In this document: positions 36,361-45,829 of the stretch, one piece after another
Layout: each line of letters begins with the position of its first letter
Numbering within the stretch: position 1 is the first letter of the stretch
Virus genome (UHGV): UHGV-0132371
DNA length: 45,879 nt
DNA from: a virus
Strand: one strand, 5' to 3'
The notes under the pieces: generated by a model
What the model saw: only the letters and a program-made list of their open reading frames with translations
Told to the model about the DNA's origin: nothing
Database searches by the model: none
Position numbers and translations under genes: made by a program

Positions 36361-39300
36361 ATGGCTACAGAGAAAGTATTAAAGGGGCGCAAAGGCGGCA
36401 AATCCAGTTCACGAACTCCTACCGAACAGCCTGATGATCTGCAATCTGTAGCGAAGGCAAAAATCCTCGTTGCGCTTGGCGAAGGGGAGTTCGCAGGGCA
36501 GCTAACCGGCAAAGATATCTACCTGGACGGAACGGCGCTGGAGAATGCCGACGGTTCCCAAAACTTCAGCGGCGTGACGTGGGAGTTTCGCGCGGGGACG
36601 CAGGCTCAAAAATATATTCAGGGTATTCCCGGTACCGAAAACGAAATCAGCGTGGGAACTGAGGTATCAAGCGCTACAGCCTGGACGCGCACGTTTACCA
36701 ATACGCAGCTTTCAGCAGTTCGTCTGCGTCTGAAATGGCCCTCGCTTTTCAAACAGGAAGACGACGGAGATCTGGTGGGTTACTCGGTCAATTATGCGAT
36801 TGACCTGCAGACGGACGGCGGCACATGGCAGACGGTACTCAATACCAGCGTGACCGGCAAAACGACGTCTGGTTATGAGCGCAGCCACCGTATCGATTTA
36901 CCGCAAGCTGGCAGCACCTGGACAATACGTCTGCGTAAGATTACCTCTGATGCCAACAGCGCGAAGATCGGCGACACGATGACGCTGCAGAGCTTCACCG
37001 AGGTGATTGACGCCAAGTTACGATATCCAAACACAGCGCTACTCTACATCGAATTCGATTCAAGTCAGTTTAACGGCTCTATCCCGCAGATCTCCTGCGA
37101 GCCCCGCGGCCGTGTTATCCGCGTTCCAGATACCTACGACCCTGAAACCCGCACTTATAGCGGTACATGGACCGGTGCGTTTAAGTGGGCATGGACGGAT
37201 AACCCTGCGTGGATTTTTTACGATCTGGTTGTTTCTGACCGGTTCGGCCTCGGGCACCGTTTGACCGCTGCGAATATTGATAAATGGACGCTTTATCAGG
37301 TTGCCCAGTATTGTGATCAGATGGTACCAGACGGCAAAGGGGGCAACGGTACCGAACCACGTTATACCTGCAACGTGTACATCCAGGACCGAAACGACGC
37401 TTATACAGTCCTGCGTGATTTTGCGGCCATATTCCGTGGCATGACGTACTGGGGAGGCGATCAGATCGTTGCTCTGGCCGATATGCCCCGAGATGTTGAT
37501 TACAGCTACACGCGCGCCAACGTTGTTGGCGGTCGCTTCACCTATTCAAGCAGCACCACGAAAACCCGCTACACCACAGCGCTGGTTTCATGGTCAGACC
37601 CGGGTAACGCTTATGCCGACGCGATGGAGCCGGTATTTGAGCAGGCGCTGGTAGCGCGATACGGCTTCAATCAGCTGGAAATGACAGCCATCGGCTGCAC
37701 CAGGCAGTCAGAAGCGAACCGAAAGGGGCGCTGGGGCATTCTCACCAACAACAAGGATCGCGTTGTTTCGTTTGATGTCGGGCTGGACGGAAACATTCCG
37801 CAGCCGGGCTACATCATCGCCGTGGCAGACGAGCTGCTTTCCGGAAAGGTTATGGGCGGCCGCATCAGCGCCGTTAACGGTCGCGTTATCAAACTTGACC
37901 GCGTAGCTGATGCAGCACCAGGTGATCGCCTTATTCTCAACCTGCCTTCCGGAGCGTCGCAGAGCAGGACCATTCAGGCCGTGAACGGGGAATCAGTCAC
38001 AGTCACCACGGCATACAGTGAGACGCCACAGGCCGAAGCTGTTTGGGTGGTTGAATCTGACGAGCTTTACGCGCAGCAGTATCGTGTTGTCAGCGTCTCC
38101 GACAACGGTGATGGCACTTTCTCAATCACCGGCGCATGGCACGACCCGGATAAATATGCCCGCATCGATACCGGAGCCATCATTGACCAGCGGCCGGTGA
38201 GCGTGATCCCGCCTGGTAACCAGTCGCCGCCTGCGAACATCGTGATCAGCTCGTTTTCCGTGGTGCAGCAAAATATCAGCGTCGAAACGATGCGCGTGAG
38301 CTGGGACCAGGCGCAGAACGCTATCGCCTATGAAGCGCAATGGCGCCGCAACGACGGGAACTGGGTTAACGTGCCGCGCAGCTCCACAACGTCATTCGAC
38401 GTACCGGGAATATATGCCGGGCGCTACCTGGTGCGCGTGCGCGCAATCAATGCCGCAGAAATCTCGTCCGGATGGGGCTATTCAGAAGAGAAAACGCTGA
38501 CGGGTAAAGTGGGCAATCTACCGAAGCCGGCTGGCTTCATCGCTTCTGAAAATGTGGTTTTCGGCATCGAGCTGAACTGGGGATTCCCGGCGAATACCGA
38601 CGACACGCTGAAGACGGAAATTCAGTACAGCCTGACCGGTACTGATGGTGATGCGATATTGCTGGCCGATGTGCCATACCCACAGCGTAAATATCAGCAG
38701 ATGGGATTAAAGGCGGGGCAGATATTCTGGTACCGCGCGCAGCTGGTTGACCGAACCGGTAACGAGTCCGGTTATACCGGCTGGGTTCGTGGTCAGGCCA
38801 GTATCGATGTTTCTGATATCACCGATGTGATCCTGGAGGACATCAAAGGGTCTGAGACGTTCAAGGACCTGATCGAGAATGCCGTTGATGCCAACGAAAA
38901 AATTGCTGGCATGGCTGACGACATCAAACAGGCCAACGATGAACTTGAGCTCCAGGCGCAGGAAATCGCAAAAAACGCGCAGGACATTGGGCAGGTTCAG
39001 ACCAGTGTTAATGAGCTTTCGAGCACTGTCGGTGATGTGTCGTCTTCTCTCTCAGAGCTTGAGCAGACCGTCGCAACGGCTGATACCGCGCTGGGCCAGC
39101 GAATCGACAGCATCAGCGTGTCTATGGACGGCATGACGGGCGGGGTTAAGAACTCAGCCATTGCCATTATCCAGAACGGGCTGGCGCAGGTGGCCGCGCG
39201 TAAAACGTTGTCTGCATCGGTCGCCGGCAACAGCGCGAATCTGGACCGTATTGATGAGGTGATTGTCAACGACAGGGAGGCAACGGCGCGCTCGCTGCTG

Positions 39301-39912
39301 AGCCTGCAGACGGACGTCAACGGCAACAAGGCATCCATCAACAGCCTGAATCAGACGTTCTCCGACTATCAGCAGGCCACCGCCACGCAGATAGACAGCA
39401 TCACGGCGACCGTGAACGGGCATACCTCCGCCATCACCACTAACGCTCAGGCTATAGCCAACGTTAATGGCGAACTCAGCGCGATGTACAACATCAAGGT
39501 TGGTGTCTCCAGCAACGGGCAGTATTACGCCGCGGGGATGGGTATCGGCGTGGAGAATACGCCATCCGGCATGCAGTCGCAGGTTATCTTCCTGGCTGAC
39601 CGCTTCGCCGTCACCACGGCAGCCGGAAATAGCGTAGCTTTGCCGTTCGTGATCCAGAACGGGCAGACATTCATCCGGGCCAGCTTCATCCAGGACGGCA
39701 CCATTGAGAACGCCAAAATCGGCAACTATATCCAGTCCAACAACTATGCAGCTGGTTCTGCTGGCTGGAAGCTTGATAAAGGGGGGACGTTTGAGAACTA
39801 CGGTTCGACTGCTGGTGAGGGAGCCATGAAACTGACAAATCAGACGATCAGCGTCAAAGATGGCAGTAATGTTCTTAGGGTGCAGGTTGGCCGATTAACG
39901 GGAGTATTCTGA
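36361..39912 (+). CDS. J: Tail tip / host-specificity protein gpJ
   Basis: 1183 aa, lambda J-like across the N-terminal two thirds; C-terminal receptor-binding part diverged. Confidence 0.9.
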   Translation: MATEKVLKGRKGGKSSSRTPTEQPDDLQSVAKAKILVALGEGEFAGQLTGKDIYLDGTALENADGSQNFSGVTWEFRAGTQAQKYIQGIPGTENEISVGTEVSSATAWTRTFTNTQLSAVRLRLKWPSLFKQEDDGDLVGYSVNYAIDLQTDGGTWQTVLNTSVTGKTTSGYERSHRIDLPQAGSTWTIRLRKITSDANSAKIGDTMTLQSFTEVIDAKLRYPNTALLYIEFDSSQFNGSIPQISCEPRGRVIRVPDTYDPETRTYSGTWTGAFKWAWTDNPAWIFYDLVVSDRFGLGHRLTAANIDKWTLYQVAQYCDQMVPDGKGGNGTEPRYTCNVYIQDRNDAYTVLRDFAAIFRGMTYWGGDQIVALADMPRDVDYSYTRANVVGGRFTYSSSTTKTRYTTALVSWSDPGNAYADAMEPVFEQALVARYGFNQLEMTAIGCTRQSEANRKGRWGILTNNKDRVVSFDVGLDGNIPQPGYIIAVADELLSGKVMGGRISAVNGRVIKLDRVADAAPGDRLILNLPSGASQSRTIQAVNGESVTVTTAYSETPQAEAVWVVESDELYAQQYRVVSVSDNGDGTFSITGAWHDPDKYARIDTGAIIDQRPVSVIPPGNQSPPANIVISSFSVVQQNISVETMRVSWDQAQNAIAYEAQWRRNDGNWVNVPRSSTTSFDVPGIYAGRYLVRVRAINAAEISSGWGYSEEKTLTGKVGNLPKPAGFIASENVVFGIELNWGFPANTDDTLKTEIQYSLTGTDGDAILLADVPYPQRKYQQMGLKAGQIFWYRAQLVDRTGNESGYTGWVRGQASIDVSDITDVILEDIKGSETFKDLIENAVDANEKIAGMADDIKQANDELELQAQEIAKNAQDIGQVQTSVNELSSTVGDVSSSLSELEQTVATADTALGQRIDSISVSMDGMTGGVKNSAIAIIQNGLAQVAARKTLSASVAGNSANLDRIDEVIVNDREATARSLLSLQTDVNGNKASINSLNQTFSDYQQATATQIDSITATVNGHTSAITTNAQAIANVNGELSAMYNIKVGVSSNGQYYAAGMGIGVENTPSGMQSQVIFLADRFAVTTAAGNSVALPFVIQNGQTFIRASFIQDGTIENAKIGNYIQSNNYAAGSAGWKLDKGGTFENYGSTAGEGAMKLTNQTISVKDGSNVLRVQVGRLTGVF

Positions 39913-41001: not shown

Positions 41002-41235
41002 ATGATTAAGCTTCTTATCGGTATGGCTTGCGCTGCCATGCTTTCAGGTTGCGCTGGTGTACTTGAGAAACAGGAACCGATTTGCAGCGGCACGGCATAT
41101 ATGGGTGGCCATGAGAATACCGTTATGATTTACGCCGTTCGAAAGCAAAACAACCAGACGCAATACCGGGCCGGATATCCCTTTAACTGGCGCTGGGTAA
41201 GTGCGAACACATTCACAAGCACGACATGTAAATAA
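41002..41235 (+). CDS. Cor-like outer-membrane lipoprotein (putative superinfection exclusion)
   Basis: 77 aa, signal peptide with lipobox LSGC; position downstream of J as for cor in phi80/N15-type phages. Family from memory. Confidence 0.5.
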   Translation: MIKLLIGMACAAMLSGCAGVLEKQEPICSGTAYMGGHENTVMIYAVRKQNNQTQYRAGYPFNWRWVSANTFTSTTCK

Positions 41236-41255
41236 CTCATGACTTTCAATGCAAA

Positions 41256-41277
41256 CCTCGCCTCGGCGGGGTTTTTT
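41256..41277 (+). terminator. Rho-independent terminator
   Basis: CCTCGCC-TC-GGCGGGG hairpin followed by TTTTTTATT. Confidence 0.55.
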
Positions 41278-41293: not shown

Positions 41294-42301
41294 ATGCTTT
41301 ATAACACAGGAACTATCTCTATTAACGGAAATACCGCAACCGGATCCGGTACAAACTGGACTGCACCGGCCAGCCAGGTTCGCGCTGGCCAGACGATTAT
41401 TGTCATGTCTAACCCGGTTCAGATGTTCCAGATTTCATCCGTGAATAGCGCCACGTCAATGACGGTAACGCCTGCTGCATCACCGGCGCTGAGCGGCCAG
41501 AAGTACGGCATTCTGGTATCAGACAATATCTCGGTTGATGGGCTGGCGCAGGCCATGTCGCAGCTTATCAAGGAGTATGACGAGAATATTGGCGCGTGGG
41601 AGACGTTCGCCACCACCTCAGCAAACCAAAGCATCACAGTTACCATCAACGGCACCGCCGTAACCATCCCAGGCATCGGTAAACTTGCGCAGAAAGGGAG
41701 CAATGGTGCGCTTGCAATCGCTGACGGCGGGACCGGGGCAACGAAGGCAGAAGACGCTCGCAAAAACCTTGGTTTGGGAGAAGGTGCTCCAGCTATTGGC
41801 GTTCCGTTCTTCTGGCCGTCCGCCGCAATGCCAAATACTGTAATCGACAGTTGGTCCAGTATGGTGTTTTTGAAGTTCAACGGCGCGAAATTCTCTGCCA
41901 CTGATTACCCTGTGCTGGCGAAAGTGTTTCCGGCGCTAGCATTACCTGACGCACGGGGTGATTTCATTCGTATCTGGGATGATGGGCGCGGGATTGATGT
42001 CGGACGTACCCTACTTTCAGGGCAATCACACACAATTATGGATCATGCACACAATATGGAATTGTGGACGGGGGACGGGCTTGCCGCAGGAAGTGCACGG
42101 GAAGGAGTAAACCCAGGAATACTGGCTACATACGGTGACGGGGGAATAGTTAAAACGGACGAACCCGGTCTTAAGGTGCCTTCCTCACTACGAGCTCTTA
42201 GCTCTCGTAGTGTTAAACGTTATGGTGAAATTAGTGGAAATGTAGATACAGAAACCCGTCCACGAAATATTGCATTTAACTTTCTGGTGAGGGCTAAATA
42301 A
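41294..42301 (+). CDS. Side tail fibre protein (constant N-terminus plus currently expressed variable C-terminus)
   Basis: Start at the ATG with GGAGAA RBS; glycine-rich fibre-like sequence; the recombination site lies inside the gene. Confidence 0.7.
   Translation: MLYNTGTISINGNTATGSGTNWTAPASQVRAGQTIIVMSNPVQMFQISSVNSATSMTVTPAASPALSGQKYGILVSDNISVDGLAQAMSQLIKEYDENIGAWETFATTSANQSITVTINGTAVTIPGIGKLAQKGSNGALAIADGGTGATKAEDARKNLGLGEGAPAIGVPFFWPSAAMPNTVIDSWSSMVFLKFNGAKFSATDYPVLAKVFPALALPDARGDFIRIWDDGRGIDVGRTLLSGQSHTIMDHAHNMELWTGDGLAAGSAREGVNPGILATYGDGGIVKTDEPGLKVPSSLRALSSRSVKRYGEISGNVDTETRPRNIAFNFLVRAK
41757..41784. other. Left crossover site of the invertible tail-fibre segment (Hin/Gin/Pin-type)
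   Basis: CTCGCAAAAACCTTGGTTTGGGAGAAGG; its TTGGTTTGGGAGAAG core is an inverted copy of 43629..43643. Confidence 0.55.
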
Positions 42302-42894
42302 TGATACCTGTTTTTGATGAAAATGGGCTGGCTACAGTGCCGGGCGATATGCGTTGTTTTTATTATAATGCAGTAACGTATGAATATACCGGCTGGTCTG
42401 ATGAATATATTAATACTGGCGTAAGTATACCCGCCTGTTCCACTGGTATTGACCCGGGCGAAAACATCCCGGGAAAAGTGGCAGTATTTACGGGTAAGGG
42501 ATGGAGCCATGAAGAAGACCATCGCAATGAGACCGTTTACTCAACTGAAAATGGCGCAGCTGTTACAGTGGATTATATCGGTGCCATCAAAGACGGTTAT
42601 GTCACGCTTTCACCGTTAACGCCATACGATAAATGGGATGGTGAGAAATGGGTGACGGATACCGAGGCACAGCATAGCGCCGCAGTAGAAGCGGCAGAAG
42701 CACAGCGCCAGTCGCTGATTGATGCTGCAATGGCTTCCATCAGTCTGATTCAACTGAAATTACAGGCTGGGCGGAAGCTGACGCAGCCAGAAAACACCCG
42801 ACTTAACGCTGTGCTGGATTACATTGACGCGGTGACGGCAACAGATACCAGCACAGCGCCGGACGTCATCTGGCCTGAACTGCCGGAGGCGTAG
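42301..42894 (+). CDS. Tail fibre assembly protein (Tfa)
   Basis: C-terminal LNAVLDYIDAV...DTSTAPDVIWPELP motif typical of Tfa chaperones. Confidence 0.7.
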   Translation: MIPVFDENGLATVPGDMRCFYYNAVTYEYTGWSDEYINTGVSIPACSTGIDPGENIPGKVAVFTGKGWSHEEDHRNETVYSTENGAAVTVDYIGAIKDGYVTLSPLTPYDKWDGEKWVTDTEAQHSAAVEAAEAQRQSLIDAAMASISLIQLKLQAGRKLTQPENTRLNAVLDYIDAVTATDTSTAPDVIWPELPEA

Positions 42895-43309
42895 ACCATT
42901 CAATATCTGGCGCACCGGAAGTATCGACCAGTTCCAGTGCGTCCAGATAATCCAGCCACAAATTATATTGCGCCAGTTCCTCACCTTTCAGACGACCAAT
43001 TGATGCTTTACCTGGCCATTGTTTACTGTTTATGTATTCGTTGGCCTGGTTAATCAATTGCTGCTTTTTAGTTTCGGCTGATGCAATTTGTTCTTCACGT
43101 GTTGGTGGAGGAATATCTGCCCATGCAGGCAGTCCATCCTCTCCGACACATCTGTATTTTCCTTCTGGTGGTGTATCATAGAAATATTCCCTGAAAATTA
43201 CTTCGTCTATATCAACACCTTTTTCTTCAGGCCATTCACCTTTTTCAACATAAAGAGACTGAAGTTCGTAAGGATATGCCAGGTTGTTTACGTACAGATA
43301 TTTCATCAT
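42866..43309 (-). CDS. Alternative tail fibre assembly protein (Tfa')
   Basis: C-terminal NLWLDYLDALELVDTSGAPDIEW motif; opposite orientation inside the invertible segment. Confidence 0.65.
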   Translation of the reverse strand: MMKYLYVNNLAYPYELQSLYVEKGEWPEEKGVDIDEVIFREYFYDTPPEGKYRCVGEDGLPAWADIPPPTREEQIASAETKKQQLINQANEYINSKQWPGKASIGRLKGEELAQYNLWLDYLDALELVDTSGAPDIEWSTPPAVQAR

Positions 43310-43662
43310 TACCAGCCCTTAGCGAAAAACGCACCACCTTCAAGACCATAATTGCAGTGAGCTATGAAGCCGGTAGTGCTCCAGTTGGTCGCCCCCCACA
43401 TATTCCCGCCCCCGAAACCACCATCGCACACAATTACAATGCCCGGTGTCTGTGTAAATGGAATCGGGAATGAAACATTGGCGGATACAGGCCCGTGTTC
43501 ACCAGGAAAACTAATTCGTCCCCACTGTTCAATTGAACCATCTGGCATTTTTCGCCAGCCTGAACCTGATGCATATGATGACATATCAGGTATCTGATTT
43601 TCCCCTGTTCCCACATTCCGTTTTGCCGCTTCTCCCAAACCAACCTTTTTTATAACCATCAA
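43309..43662 (-). CDS. Alternative tail fibre C-terminal segment (promoterless; expressed after inversion)
   Basis: The frame stays open through the right crossover site and encodes KKVGLGE, matching KNLGLGE at the left site in the expressed gene. Confidence 0.55.
43629..43655. other. Right crossover site of the invertible tail-fibre segment
   Basis: CTTCTCCCAAACCAACCTTTTTTATAA; inverted copy of the left-site core. Confidence 0.55.
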
Positions 43663-43714
43663 AAATCTGGTGATGCTTCGCCGTTTCTCCTGTTTTCATA
43701 ACAGGAGAAATCCC

Positions 43715-44278
43715 ATGATTTACGGTTATGCCCGAGTATCAACAAACCACCAGGACACTGAATTGCAACTAACGGCGCTCAAGTCAGCGGGTTGTGAGAA
43801 AATTTTTGAAGAGCATGCCAGCGGGAGGAAATCGAATCGGCCGGTTCTAAAACGGCTCATCGCCACTATGCAGCCGGGGGATGAACTGGTGGTCTGGAAG
43901 CTGGACAGGATAGGCCGCAACGTTCTGCATGCGCTGTTGATGTTCCAGCAGTTACAGGAAAAGGGTATCAACTTCCGCAGTATTACCGATGGCGTGGATC
44001 TCAAAACAGCCAGCGGCCGCTATAACTTTCGTAACATCCTTTCCGCAGCACAATATGAATCTGATCTTAATAGCGAACGTACCTTAGCAGGGCTGGCCGT
44101 AGCCAGGGCAAAAGGGCGAGTTGGTGGGCGTAGACCGAAGTTTAGCGACGAGCAGTGGCAACAGATGGGAGCGCTCATAGCGGCAGGGAAATCACGGCGT
44201 TATGTTGCACGTATCTATAACGTTGGGCTATCAACCCTATATAAACGATTTCCTGTTACTGGCATTCAAACGAAATAA
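43715..44278 (+). CDS. Serine recombinase, DNA invertase of the Hin/Gin/Pin/Cin family
   Basis: MIYGYARVSTNHQ catalytic N-terminus; C-terminal HTH; AGGAGAAA RBS (track ORF starts upstream at 43670). Confidence 0.85.
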   Translation: MIYGYARVSTNHQDTELQLTALKSAGCEKIFEEHASGRKSNRPVLKRLIATMQPGDELVVWKLDRIGRNVLHALLMFQQLQEKGINFRSITDGVDLKTASGRYNFRNILSAAQYESDLNSERTLAGLAVARAKGRVGGRRPKFSDEQWQQMGALIAAGKSRRYVARIYNVGLSTLYKRFPVTGIQTK

Positions 44279-44421: not shown

Positions 44422-44670
44422 TTAGTGAACAAACCACTCGTCAGCAGATTCCCAGGTATCTTTCAGAGTCTCCTGAACAAAAGTTTTTGCAGAATCCTTA
44501 TCTGCGGTGCGTGTAACAGAAAGGCCATCGTTGCTGGTGGCTTTTACGATCACCTCTACATCGTCATAACGTTTACTGATGCGTCGGGTTAATTCTTCCT
44601 TTAACGCATCCACAGCACCGGTTGGCATTTTAGTCATTTTTTCTTTGGCTATGCAGATTTCAATACGCAT
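44422..44670 (-). CDS. dinI: DinI-like DNA-damage-inducible protein
   Basis: 82 aa resembling E. coli DinI (MRIE..IAK...GA.DAL..EL.RRI...[11 protein letters not shown]). Confidence 0.75.
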
Positions 44671-44731: not shown

Positions 44732-45829
44732 TCAAGAGATCTTATTTCTGCTCCTTTGGAGCTCTTCAAAACGATTATGTAAAGATTTTGGATACAGTTC
44801 GGTATATACCTGCCATAGCACGTTTAATGAACGATGCCCTGTAACCTGGGCTACTTCCTCAATACTAAAACCAGCCTCAAATAAGCGACTTGCCCCTTCT
44901 CTACGCAAATCATGGTATCGCAGATCCTTAATACCTAATTTGCTTCTTACCCTCTGAAATCCCGCAGTAACAGAAGTGCTGTTATATGGAAAAATGAATT
45001 CCGATTTTTGGGGCTGTCGTTGGACGATATCCCAGGCTTCCCCAAGCAAGGCTACTTTCATGTGGTTGCCTTCCTTTTTGCGTGGATCTTTCCTGTCTCT
45101 TACGAGTATAGATTTTTGTTCCTGGTCGAGATCTTCCCATCGTAACCGGCATACTTCTCCGATTCGCATACAGGACCACACAGAAAATTTGAGGATATCA
45201 ACGAACGGAATTTTTGAGCATTTATGAGTAGATCGTTGTTGAAGGCCTTCAATGAGCATGTCCAGTTCATCAGATGCTGGTCTACGATTACGACGGTTTG
45301 ATTTACCAATTAAACCAAGTTTAAGTAGATATGGACGAGCGGCTTTTGCTGGGTTTGATGTGTAATTAATTCCATATACAGGTTTGGCAGCATCCAGAAC
45401 ACTGCCAAGATAACTAACATCGTGGCTAACTGTAGCTGGACCTGCACCAGCGTTGTTTCTTAGCCTGCAATGTTCAATTACGTCATTTTCTGTCAGTTCA
45501 GATAGTTTGATCGCGGAGATGTCACTATCCATAAGCAGTTCCAGCACATATCTTTTAGTACGGCCTGCTTTACCTCCGGCATTTGGGTCATTTAAATATT
45601 TGTGTAGTAAGTCACGGACTGTAAGTCCGTCAACTGCATTTGATGATGGAATGCCATATAGATCTAATTCCATCACTTTCTGTGTGCCCCATGTTTTGGC
45701 ATGAGCATGTTTAGGGAATGTTTTGCTTTCCCTGTAAGTGATAACACCTTTTTCTTTGATAATCACATTACAGCGATAGCGTGGTGTGCCATCGGATTTT
45801 AGTCGTTTCTCTATGTTATAGTACGCCAT
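44732..45829 (-). CDS. int: Tyrosine site-specific integrase
   Basis: 365 aa; C-terminal catalytic motifs (HDLRREGASRL, VTGHRSL, YTELY); GAGG RBS. Confidence 0.85.
   Translation of the reverse strand: MAYYNIEKRLKSDGTPRYRCNVIIKEKGVITYRESKTFPKHAHAKTWGTQKVMELDLYGIPSSNAVDGLTVRDLLHKYLNDPNAGGKAGRTKRYVLELLMDSDISAIKLSELTENDVIEHCRLRNNAGAGPATVSHDVSYLGSVLDAAKPVYGINYTSNPAKAARPYLLKLGLIGKSNRRNRRPASDELDMLIEGLQQRSTHKCSKIPFVDILKFSVWSCMRIGEVCRLRWEDLDQEQKSILVRDRKDPRKKEGNHMKVALLGEAWDIVQRQPQKSEFIFPYNSTSVTAGFQRVRSKLGIKDLRYHDLRREGASRLFEAGFSIEEVAQVTGHRSLNVLWQVYTELYPKSLHNRFEELQRSRNKIS

Follow-up and report, generated by a model that had tools for sequence, protein, structure and literature searches.

The question raised by this locus is whether a side tail-fibre gene that carries a short inverted repeat, and that is followed by a gene for a DNA invertase, forms a working switch between two fibre tips. 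The stretch of DNA analysed (hereafter the window; 45,879 nucleotides of the virus genome UHGV-0132371) is a prophage, in which a tyrosine integrase gene (44732-45829) adjoins a Dus-family gene. The prophage looks complete, with terminase, portal, tail, J, cor, lysis and early regions and integrase. Analysis of the fibre gene, the repeats and the invertase, coupled with comparison of related loci in public genomes, indicates that this phi80/HK97-like lambdoid prophage very probably carries a working site-specific inversion switch that sets its side tail fibre in one of two states.

Organization of the Fibre Cassette

The features of the locus are collected in Table 1. The constant part Sc shows 82-99% nucleotide identity to the stf N-termini of related prophages and matches the stf genes of HK97, phi80 and mEp237. 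The two candidate tips are unrelated folds, gp37-tip-like versus gp53/pyocin-knob-like: Sv matches the T4 gp37 tip (PDB 2xgf, E = 7e-5) and, weakly, the Pfam Collar family, and Sv' is a gp53-like, R-pyocin-knob-like domain with matches to PDB 9zd7 and 6ct8. The initial annotation had placed the expressed C-terminus with its Tfa on one strand and an alternative C-terminus with Tfa' on the other, with the reading frame conserved across the site, and both points were borne out. The genes are arranged as Sv-tfa / tfa'-Sv', both chaperones belong to the Caudo_TAP family, and Sv', which has no start codon of its own, comes into frame with Sc once inverted, so that in-silico inversion yields an uninterrupted Stf of 269 aa. 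The silent Sv' and tfa' reading frames are intact, and the 3' ends of tfa' and tfa overlap by 29 bp. The constant N-terminus lies outside the segment, the two opposed C-termini with their own chaperones lie inside it, and both fusions are in frame, which is the organization of an invertible fibre cassette.

Table 1. Features of the fibre-switch locus (positions are those of the window)
Feature	Position	Strand	Evidence and remarks
cor, phage exclusion lipoprotein	41002-41235	+	NCBIfam lamb_exclu_cor, E = 6e-40; upstream of stf, context only
Terminator-like hairpin after cor	41253-41274		same feature annotated in phi80
stf, side tail fibre (ORF)	41294-42301	+	ORF list
Sc, constant N-terminal part of stf, ~158 aa	41294-41768	+	fused to the variable part that faces it at the time
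Left 26-bp crossover site, pix-type	41757-41782		CTCGCAAAAACC-TT-GGTTTGGGAGAA; central TT 41769-41770; codes for ...KNLGLGE
Sv, variable fibre C-terminus now in fused state, 172 aa	41783-42301	+	collar / T4 gp37-tip-like domain, HxH motifs
tfa, chaperone for Sv, 197 aa	42301-42894	+	Pfam Caudo_TAP, E = 1e-27
tfa', chaperone for alternative tip, 147 aa	42866-43309	-	Pfam Caudo_TAP, E = 6e-32
Sv', silent alternative C-terminus, 106 aa + stop	43309-43629	-	Pfam Gp53-like_C, E = 1e-7
Right 26-bp crossover site	43630-43655		minus-strand reading TTATAAAAAAGG-TT-GGTTTGGGAGAA; central AA (+ strand) 43642-43643
Invertase leader	43669-43711	+	5-bp hairpin 43669-43682; 12-bp anti-SD hairpin 43683-43711
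Serine DNA invertase, PinL clade, 187 aa	43715 (ATG)-44278	+	Pfam Resolvase, E = 4e-39; HTH_7, E = 7e-12

Crossover Sites

The 15-mer TTGGTTTGGGAGAAG is present at 41769-41783 (+) and 43629-43643 (-), and these are its only two matches in the whole 45.9 kb when up to two mismatches are allowed; none of 100 shuffles gave two matches. The inverted repeat around this core extends over 22 nt at 91% identity (41762-41783 / 43629-43650). An inverted copy of a core inside the fibre gene had been proposed about 1.87 kb downstream, and the exact distance between the site centres is 1,873 bp. Both 26-bp sites are imperfect palindromes that lie in inverted orientation and share the same asymmetric central TT, as is typical of Din-type sites. 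They resemble hix/gix sites, and the A/T-rich half-sites of the initial annotation correspond to A-rich outer half-sites in both. In the left site, the strands should be exchanged at the central TT. No third crossover site was found in the window with up to three mismatches allowed, ruling out multi-inversion of the Min or shufflon kind. A pix-like stretch in dinI (44469-44490), which shows 82% complementarity with the left arm, was rejected as a site: its central CC-TT-GG is gone, it is not recovered at up to three mismatches, and joining at this point would break the reading frame.

The TTGGTTTGGGAGAAG core is identical to the crossover repeat published for the P segment of E. coli e14, and inversion at the P-segment repeats, TTGGTTTGGGAGAAGG and CCTTCTCCCAAACCAA, by PinE, PinQ and PinR has been demonstrated experimentally (PMC12529663). 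Comparison with the K-12 sites revealed that the window shares with e14 an identical core, TTGGTTTGGGAGAAG(G), and the inner half-site TTCTCCCAAACC; the outer half-sites of e14 P are unlike those of the window.

Inversion in Related Genomes

In the 9 kb compared, the only difference between the chromosomes of E. coli CX15 and CX07 is a 1,845-bp block that one carries as the exact reverse complement of the other. This block is bounded by the core found in the window, with the breakpoints exactly within the core, and its cassette is 99.9% identical to that of the window; the invertase there is PinE-type, not PinL-type. Beside invertases of the window's own lineage, 14 complete E. coli genomes contained the in-silico inverted pin-proximal junction at 80% coverage or more, and nine contained the native junction. 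The exact reading frames predicted for the silent fragment in both states also occur in public genomes, ten residues plus Sv' (116 aa) in 30 contigs and ten residues plus Sv (182 aa) in 18. Both orientations were thus found on related loci (CX15/CX07 and the PinL-type flank junctions), not on the window prophage itself. Most of the roughly 90 related loci share the layout stfN, site, cassette, site, 72 nt and pin, with the right site at a constant distance from the invertase ATG and a mosaic cassette of roughly 1.2-3.2 kb (mostly ~1.9 kb).

Both fibre frames read the core as the conserved ...GLGE... motif, and the repeat could accordingly be read as a by-product of convergent homologous fibre genes with a common LGLGE motif rather than as a recombination site. 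Such a reading is scarcely credible. Nucleotide identity is 15/15 and ends at the motif, the neighbouring codons differing immediately, and a serine invertase lies at a fixed 72 nt in most of the ~90 loci. The CX15/CX07 breakpoints, together with the identity of the core to the experimentally defined e14 repeat, effectively refute it.

A more serious doubt is that the repeats and genes have simply been inherited and that no inversion takes place now, the invertase being inactive or unexpressed or its need for a co-factor unmet, which would leave the locus fixed in the Sv state. The exact Stf is present in four public contigs, in each case as the 335-aa protein of the Sv state, and the protein collection has no entry for the exact inverted Stf of 269 aa. 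The close relatives phi80 and mEp237 have clearly decayed: the left site and the cassette are lost, only the right site is left, dinI separates stf from pin, and PinL of phi80 is cut short at its C-terminus, to 172 aa, which implies that the module is often lost. The burial of the invertase Shine-Dalgarno (SD) sequence in a hairpin of -15 kcal/mol and the degradation of the canonical Fis sites, both described below, would also suit a relic. Against this stand two perfect site cores, a full-length invertase with catalytic residues and helix-turn-helix (HTH), intact silent reading frames, the occurrence of both junction states beside the same PinL-type flank in nature, and the conservation of the PinL clade across genera. 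A frozen locus is therefore unlikely, and a functional switch is the preferred reading. The gene order of phi80 and mEp237 was also considered as a product of Pin inversion, which was ruled out, as dinL has the orientation seen in the window and, of the two sites, just the right one is present.

The Invertase and Its Control

The product of the last gene of the locus had been assigned to the Hin/Gin family. This holds insofar as the protein is a Gin-like serine invertase encoded outside the segment; it is not a typical member, and falls in a divergent clade lacking the hallmarks of Fis/enhancer control. Din-type recombinases are small serine enzymes of about 180-195 aa with a nucleophilic Ser9/10 in the N-terminal catalytic domain; as in these, R7 and S9 and a C-terminal HTH are present in a full-length protein, which matches the Gin structure (PDB 3uj3, E = 3e-58) gaplessly over residues 1-181. 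Identity in a multiple alignment is 92% to phi80 PinL, 57% to e14 PinE and ~51% to Gin. The gene begins 72 nt beyond the right site and outside the invertible segment, and is therefore present in both states. The PinL clade is widespread, with members from E. coli, Kluyvera, Citrobacter, Morganella and Erwinia prophages, and forms a divergent, little-studied branch, unlike typical Hin, Gin, Cin and Pin. Identity of 64-100% across genera, with invariant catalytic and helix-E residues, indicates that the clade is evolving under purifying selection.

Concerning expression, a sigma-70 promoter scan for the invertase gave five sites versus 5.9 expected, none of them convincing, and TATAAC in the outer half-site was rejected as its promoter, having no -35 element and not being kept in type-B leaders. 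A hairpin occluding the ribosome-binding site had been suggested as a regulator, and the occlusion proved well founded. The arms TCTCCTGTT (43686-43694) and AACAGGAGA (43700-43708) belong to a full stem of 12 bp (43683-43694 / 43700-43711) with the loop UUCAU (dG -15.4 kcal/mol, z = -6.3), and the AGGAGA SD (43703-43708) lies within the 3' arm. The stem is invariant in 20 distinct leaders with variable flanks; covariation amounts to one compensatory pair (U-A to C-G) among mostly invariant stems, a weak statistic, so that the argument for the hairpin rests on invariance amid variable flanks. PinE-type leaders form weaker anti-SD hairpins that include U.G pairs. In phi80 (JX871397) the hairpin before pinL bears the annotation "IR3", and no family matching it was found in Rfam. 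The conserved hairpin probably keeps translation of the invertase low by sequestering the SD.

The canonical enhancer of DNA invertases consists of a pair of Fis sites, spaced by about 48 bp, in the 5' part of the gene. The Fis consensus KNNYRNNWNNYRNNM occurs without mismatch at nt 23-37 and 71-85 (centred at +30 and +78) of the Gin and PinE genes, and likewise in 91/91 and 90/91 relatives, respectively, of the comparison set of 91 distinct Gin/PinE-type genes. In the window, by contrast, the invertase gene carries one mismatch at each site; in the PinL clade there is at least one at site I and mostly one to four at site II. The canonical two-site enhancer is thus missing from the invertase gene of the window, the degeneracy of the consensus leaving room for a non-canonical one; 5.8% of all 15-mers lie within one mismatch of the consensus, which is too degenerate for a search elsewhere to find or exclude such an enhancer. 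Synonymous variation shows a mild dip, being slightly lower in nt 1-108 of the invertase gene.

The protein deviates as well. The helix-B basic triad (K47, R48 and K51 of Hin) and Q151, R154 and L155 of DBD helix 1 are reported to be uniquely conserved in Fis/enhancer-dependent invertases (PMC3798978). The window enzyme has K46, R47 and A50 and Q150, A153 and L154 at these positions (Gin numbering); both triads vary within the PinL clade, and all 91 canonical genes encode the basic and QRL residues. The helix-E regulatory motif of Hin (F104-L112) is F-F-F-H-x-M-x-x-L (PMC4513852). It is replaced by Y-N-F-R-x-I-x-x-A in the window enzyme and the entire PinL clade, FFFH-M-L being kept in 91/91 canonical genes. 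The PinL clade thereby has an invariant Asn where Hin has Phe105, a single substitution that is sufficient for Fis-independent Hin. Given the missing canonical Fis sites and contact residues, activity might be regulated differently or be weak. A tentative and rather doubtful proposal is that the PinL clade has dispensed with canonical Fis/enhancer activation, the closer members (at least ~82% identity to the window enzyme) being kept safe by very low translation through the SD-sequestering hairpin. If this were true, PinL enzymes would be natural enhancer-independent invertases working on pix sites.

Proposed Switch

By homology to Gin and Hin, the 187-aa invertase would bind as dimers at the two inverted pix-type sites and cut at the central TT/AA, after which the subunits would rotate by 180 degrees and the ends would be religated. 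Recombination of this kind would flip the 1,873-bp stretch from one site centre to the other. In the present orientation, Sc (aa 1-158) is joined to the collar domain Sv, followed by Tfa; in the flipped orientation, Sc is in frame with the knob Sv', followed by Tfa'. A lysogen population could thus release virions with either receptor-binding tip, a form of bet-hedging on host range. Catalysis, inversion by this enzyme and the receptors of both tips are inferred, and the swap of fibre tips probably changes the host range of the phage.

A fibre switch might instead be selected mainly for host defence, the inversion-made chimera stopping other phages from adsorbing. In the e14 P segment, the StfE2 fibre chimera is reported to block T2 (PMC12529663); that segment has the same crossover core, and the window cassette is 99.9% identical to one in e14-like prophages. 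On the other side, the present prophage seems complete, and each tip has its own chaperone, as expected of virion fibres. Host defence as the main selected role is accordingly very unlikely, and a host-range switch is preferred. The two roles can coexist.

Comparison with Known Inversion Systems

Shufflons (R64 Rci / sfx) depend on a tyrosine recombinase and on at least three repeats, from which many arrangements of the pilus tip PilV arise. The locus had been called shufflon-like, a description that is apt only in that alternative adhesin C-termini arise from DNA inversion; in the window the recombinase is a serine resolvase/invertase acting on exactly two sites, instead of Rci on many repeats. 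The tyrosine integrase of the window is that of the prophage, beside the Dus-family gene. With its two sites and its serine recombinase, the switch belongs with Mu G, P1 C and e14 P and not among the shufflons.

A close counterpart is e14 P, with the same order Sc / Sv-tfa / tfa'-Sv' / invertase, and the near-identical cassette of e14-like prophages is found in both orientations. The e14 P system differs in that it resides in a cryptic baseplate-type element, unlike the complete siphovirus prophage of the window, and PinE belongs to a different clade. Mu G/Gin and P1 C/Cin show the same two-state swap of fibre C-termini with their chaperones (S/U versus S'/U'), an invertase just outside the segment and, in the Mu annotation, 26-bp sites within the fibre gene; their segments are larger (3 kb in Mu and 4.2 kb in P1 versus ~1.9 kb in the window). 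The pinL region of phi80, together with mEp237 and mEpX1, shares with the window the invertase lineage, the leader hairpin, the right site and the cor-stf neighbourhood. Relative to the decayed loci of phi80 and mEp237, the switch of the window is intact and looks ancestral.

Significance

As a tail-fibre switch the present locus is ordinary: it has precedents in Mu G, P1 C and e14 P that go back 40 years, and its core is literally that of e14. It does show in intact form, and within a complete phi80-like lambdoid prophage, a module of which phi80 itself keeps only a relic. The 1.9-kb cassette is exchanged among phages of unrelated type, namely between the side fibre of a siphovirus and baseplate-type e14-like elements. 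This transfer uses the conserved crossover and the GLGE junction, and bears on the engineering of chimeric fibres. The anti-SD hairpin is an unstudied candidate translational control element, and the PinL clade is a natural setting in which to ask to what extent DNA invertases need Fis/enhancer control.

Gene arrangement and crossover sites

The locus is an invertible tail-fibre cassette with a divergent invertase of the PinL clade (phi80 PinL-like invertases), and it resembles the Mu G, P1 C and e14 P tail-fibre switches in working and organization, sharing its crossover site with e14. The initial annotation had recognized an invertible tail-fibre segment, a reading supported by the sites, the fusions and the occurrence of the cassette in both orientations in nature; its term "shufflon-like" is not, as the switch differs from a shufflon and is of the Mu G/P1 C/e14 P type. 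The gene anatomy was derived from an ORF listing and Pfam (see table). The tfa and tfa' genes converge, and their 3' ends overlap by 29 bp, an overlap also found in the copies of Escherichia coli CX15, CX07 and EC09.

Coordinates of the features of the locus and its surroundings
Feature	Position	Strand	Remarks
J-type tip protein	36361-39912		
cor exclusion lipoprotein gene	41002-41235		E = 6e-40
cor plus the terminator-like hairpin that follows it	41002-41274		
stf	41294-42301	+	335 aa
Left site	41757-41782		CTCGCAAAAACC-TT-GGTTTGGGAGAA
tfa	42301-42894	+	Caudo_TAP
tfa'	42866-43309	-	Caudo_TAP
tfa/tfa' overlap	42866-42894		29 bp
Promoterless fibre C-terminus (Sv')	43309-43629	-	Gp53-like_C
Right site	43655-43630	-	TTATAAAAAAGG-TT-GGTTTGGGAGAA
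Leader hairpin stem	43683-43694/43700-43711		12 bp, loop UUCAU
Invertase	43715 (ATG)-44278	+	187 aa, Resolvase and HTH_7
Tyrosine integrase	44732-45829		Preceded by dinI homologue

A scan of the 45.9-kb window located the 15-mer TTGGTTTGGGAGAAG at 41769-41783 (+) and 43629-43643 (-), with no third copy at up to two mismatches; two matches were reached in 0 of 100 shuffles, and a repeat finder gave longer arms, of 22 nt at 91%. Written with the TT dinucleotide as centre, both 26-bp sites are hix/gix-type imperfect palindromes whose outer half-sites are A-rich, in line with the initial annotation's description of the inverted repeat, and additional searches of the window found no further site copies. 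The right site is centred 72 nt before the invertase ATG. The core is the pix crossover sequence, because it is the same as the published e14 P-segment repeats, 5'-TTGGTTTGGGAGAAGG-3' and 5'-CCTTCTCCCAAACCAA-3' (2025 NAR paper, PMC12529663), which a sequence check located in MG1655. The 1,797-bp e14 segment between these repeats has been inverted experimentally by PinE, PinQ and PinR (PMC12529663), and both e14 orientations coexist at read level (PMC4272514). Inside dinI, 22 nt (44469-44490, -) complement the left site arm (GCAAAAACTTTTGTTCAGGAGA) at 82%; as a site this stretch was rejected, since the central CC..GG is absent and fusion at this point would not keep the frame, and the resemblance is probably due to chance.

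Inverting in silico the segment bounded by the two central dinucleotides keeps the frame, as had been proposed: the inverted Stf comprises 269 aa, in which the unchanged 158-aa N-terminus runs on through KNLGLGE into the alternative tip, with tfa' next. The expressed and silent tips, which the initial annotation had suggested comparing with known receptor-binding domains, are unrelated to each other: the expressed tip, with its HxH motifs, is similar to the needle tip of T4 gp37 (2xgf, E = 7e-5) and the silent tip to gp53-like and R2-pyocin knob domains. Judged from sequence and comparison, the locus thus has two sites, two in-frame fusions, one chaperone per tip, an invertase outside the segment and both cassette orientations in nature. 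By the Gin/Hin paradigm, invertase dimers would bind the sites and cleave at the central TT to leave 2-nt overhangs, and the subunits would rotate by 180 degrees before religation; the outcome would be limited to inversion, since ligation in the wrong alignment is blocked by the asymmetric core dinucleotide. The resulting exchange of tips would bring about a putative change of host range.

Occurrence of both orientations

Many E. coli genomes carry a cassette that matches 41761-43643 at 99.7-99.9% identity, and three lines of evidence show this cassette in both orientations. First, the CX15 and CX07 chromosomes (4,949,018 bp each) are identical over the 9 kb compared, save for a 1,845-bp block of CX15 that is the exact reverse complement of that of CX07, with 15-bp identity, corresponding to the core, into both flanks; in these strains the cassette forms part of an e14-like element (baseplate J, YmfQ) whose invertase is PinE-type. 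Second, complete E. coli genomes were searched for the native and in-silico inverted pin-proximal junctions of the window's invertase lineage (pin, invertase gene): at coverage of at least 80%, the native junction occurs in 9 genomes (EC09 at 100% identity) and the inverted one in 14 (top identity 93%). Third, the silent-end ORF, as a gene caller would see it, begins in the invertase-proximal flank and runs into the facing tip, and exact look-up in public E. coli genomes returned it with the silent tip Sv' (116 aa) in 30 contigs and with the expressed tip Sv (182 aa) in 18. Exact protein look-up in public genomes gave no match to the full-length inverted Stf of this prophage, so that inversion of this very element is inferred.

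Leader hairpin of the invertase gene

The initial annotation correctly placed hairpin arms over the invertase RBS: the full 12-bp stem holds the AGGAGA Shine-Dalgarno (SD) sequence in its 3' arm, 6 nt upstream of the ATG, and folds with a dG of -15.4 kcal/mol, whereas shuffled sequences average -3.1 (z = -6.3). The 75-nt leaders of 90 loci fall into 20 distinct sequences, in which the site-to-hairpin spacer is freely variable and 9 of the 12 stem pairs are invariant; one pair is compensatory (U-A to C-G in "type B" leaders), and each of two others is unpaired in one or two leaders. With so little variation in the stem, the covariation statistics are weak. The same repeat is labelled IR3 in the phi80 annotation, the hairpin is absent in more distant clade members (at most 75% identity), and no Rfam family matches it. 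PinE-type leaders, including those of e14 pinE (L101), L122/L139 and others, carry weaker, shorter anti-SD hairpins with U.G pairs, such as UUCCUG...CAGGGA. These hairpins and the invariant non-coding 5' arm favour a functional element, probably one acting at the RNA level, and SD sequestration may be a general trait of Pin-type invertase genes. The chances that the hairpin occludes invertase translation appear evenly balanced. A promoter scan found no convincing invertase promoter.

Prophage context and spread of the architecture

Essentially the whole window is a single lambdoid prophage, with a phi80-like late region (89% identical to phi80 from terminase to portal, the match beginning at about 19857). 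The cor gene is linked to FhuA-using phages. A strong terminator-like hairpin, also present in the phi80 annotation, lies between cor and stf; on this arrangement, stf transcription must cross the hairpin or begin downstream of it. In the 111-kb source metagenome contig (ENA ERZ27234326 k141_3061; region L102 9439-13008), the integrase adjoins a Dus-family (dusA-like) gene. The integrase end is the prophage boundary, because the contig runs on through this gene into pspG and a zinc alcohol-dehydrogenase-family gene. This position fits dusA-targeting integrases, and dusA seems to be the integration site of the prophage, whose int gene lies beside the tail-fibre end, not the early-gene end.

Loci encoding invertase relatives (80 from IMG/VR and 14 species-representative) mostly have the right site at a constant distance from the invertase ATG and the left site inside a tail-fibre gene, in most cases some 1.9 kb further upstream (overall between roughly 1.2 and 3.2 kb). 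What lies between the sites is highly mosaic; the cassette of L065 is 100% identical to the window's, and in L013 Sv/tfa is flipped and adjoins the invertase. In phi80 (JX871397 21.5-24.5 kb) and mEp237, only the right, invertase-proximal site of the two remains with the invertase, dinI and pseudogene fragments separate stf from pin, the IR3 hairpin is kept, and phi80 PinL is truncated to 172 aa. These losses imply that the phi80 module is a decayed relic of the switch intact in the window. Several draft contigs from Kluyvera, Trabulsiella and Shimwellia (L084, L085, L088, L093, L096) break off within about 90-860 nt on the upstream side of the invertase-proximal site; a contig of 426 bp, from Kluyvera sichuanensis, encodes invertase residues 1-89 100% identical to the window's. 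These ends are an ambiguous sign, but fit assemblies that broke where the cassette is of mixed orientation or present in multiple copies.

Divergence of the PinL clade

The invertase shares 57% identity with PinE, 51% with Gin and 92% with phi80 PinL and is an atypical Din enzyme. The locus has the structure that defines a Din-type system and lacks the features tied specifically to Fis/enhancer dependence. According to work from Johnson's laboratory, Hin K47/R48/K51 (helix B) and Q151/R154/L155 (DBD helix 1), uniquely conserved in Fis/enhancer-dependent invertases, are dispensable except for Fis activation (PMC3798978), the helix-E residues F104-F105-F106, M109 and L112 act as a gate to tetramer formation, and F105 changed to L/I/M/V/W/N gives Fis-independent inversion (PMC4513852). 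The window's gene and its clade (loci L004-L095) were compared with 91 distinct canonical Gin/PinE-type genes (IMG/VR). Helix E reads FFFH-M-L in 91/91 canonical genes, whereas the window and clade have Y-N-F-R-x-I-x-x-A, invariant down to 64% identity and across genera, with Asn at the Hin F105 position. The helix-B triad, basic in 91/91, is K46, R47, A50 in the window, the third position being A/T/S/G/D/E (one K) in the clade; DBD helix 1, Q-R-L in 91/91, is Q-A-L in the window and variable in the clade. Scored against the very degenerate consensus KNNYRNNWNNYRNNM, Fis sites I (nt 23-37) and II (nt 71-85), centred 48 bp apart, have no mismatches in 91/91 and 90/91 canonical genes, in contrast to at least one and, with one exception, 1-4 mismatches in the window and clade. 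Since the canonical genes are rather close relatives of one another, the Fis consensus is degenerate and synonymous-site conservation is only mildly higher in the first 108 nt of the gene, departure from Fis/enhancer activation is a sequence-based lead, short of demonstration, and the PinL clade may differ in its regulation from the classical Din invertases.

The cassette 41761-43643 is common, at 99.7-99.9% identity, to this lambdoid siphovirus-type prophage and to the e14-like baseplate-type prophages of CX15 and CX07, which carry a different invertase, PinE, implying that whole receptor-binding cassettes cross unrelated tail types via the conserved GLGE/pix junction.
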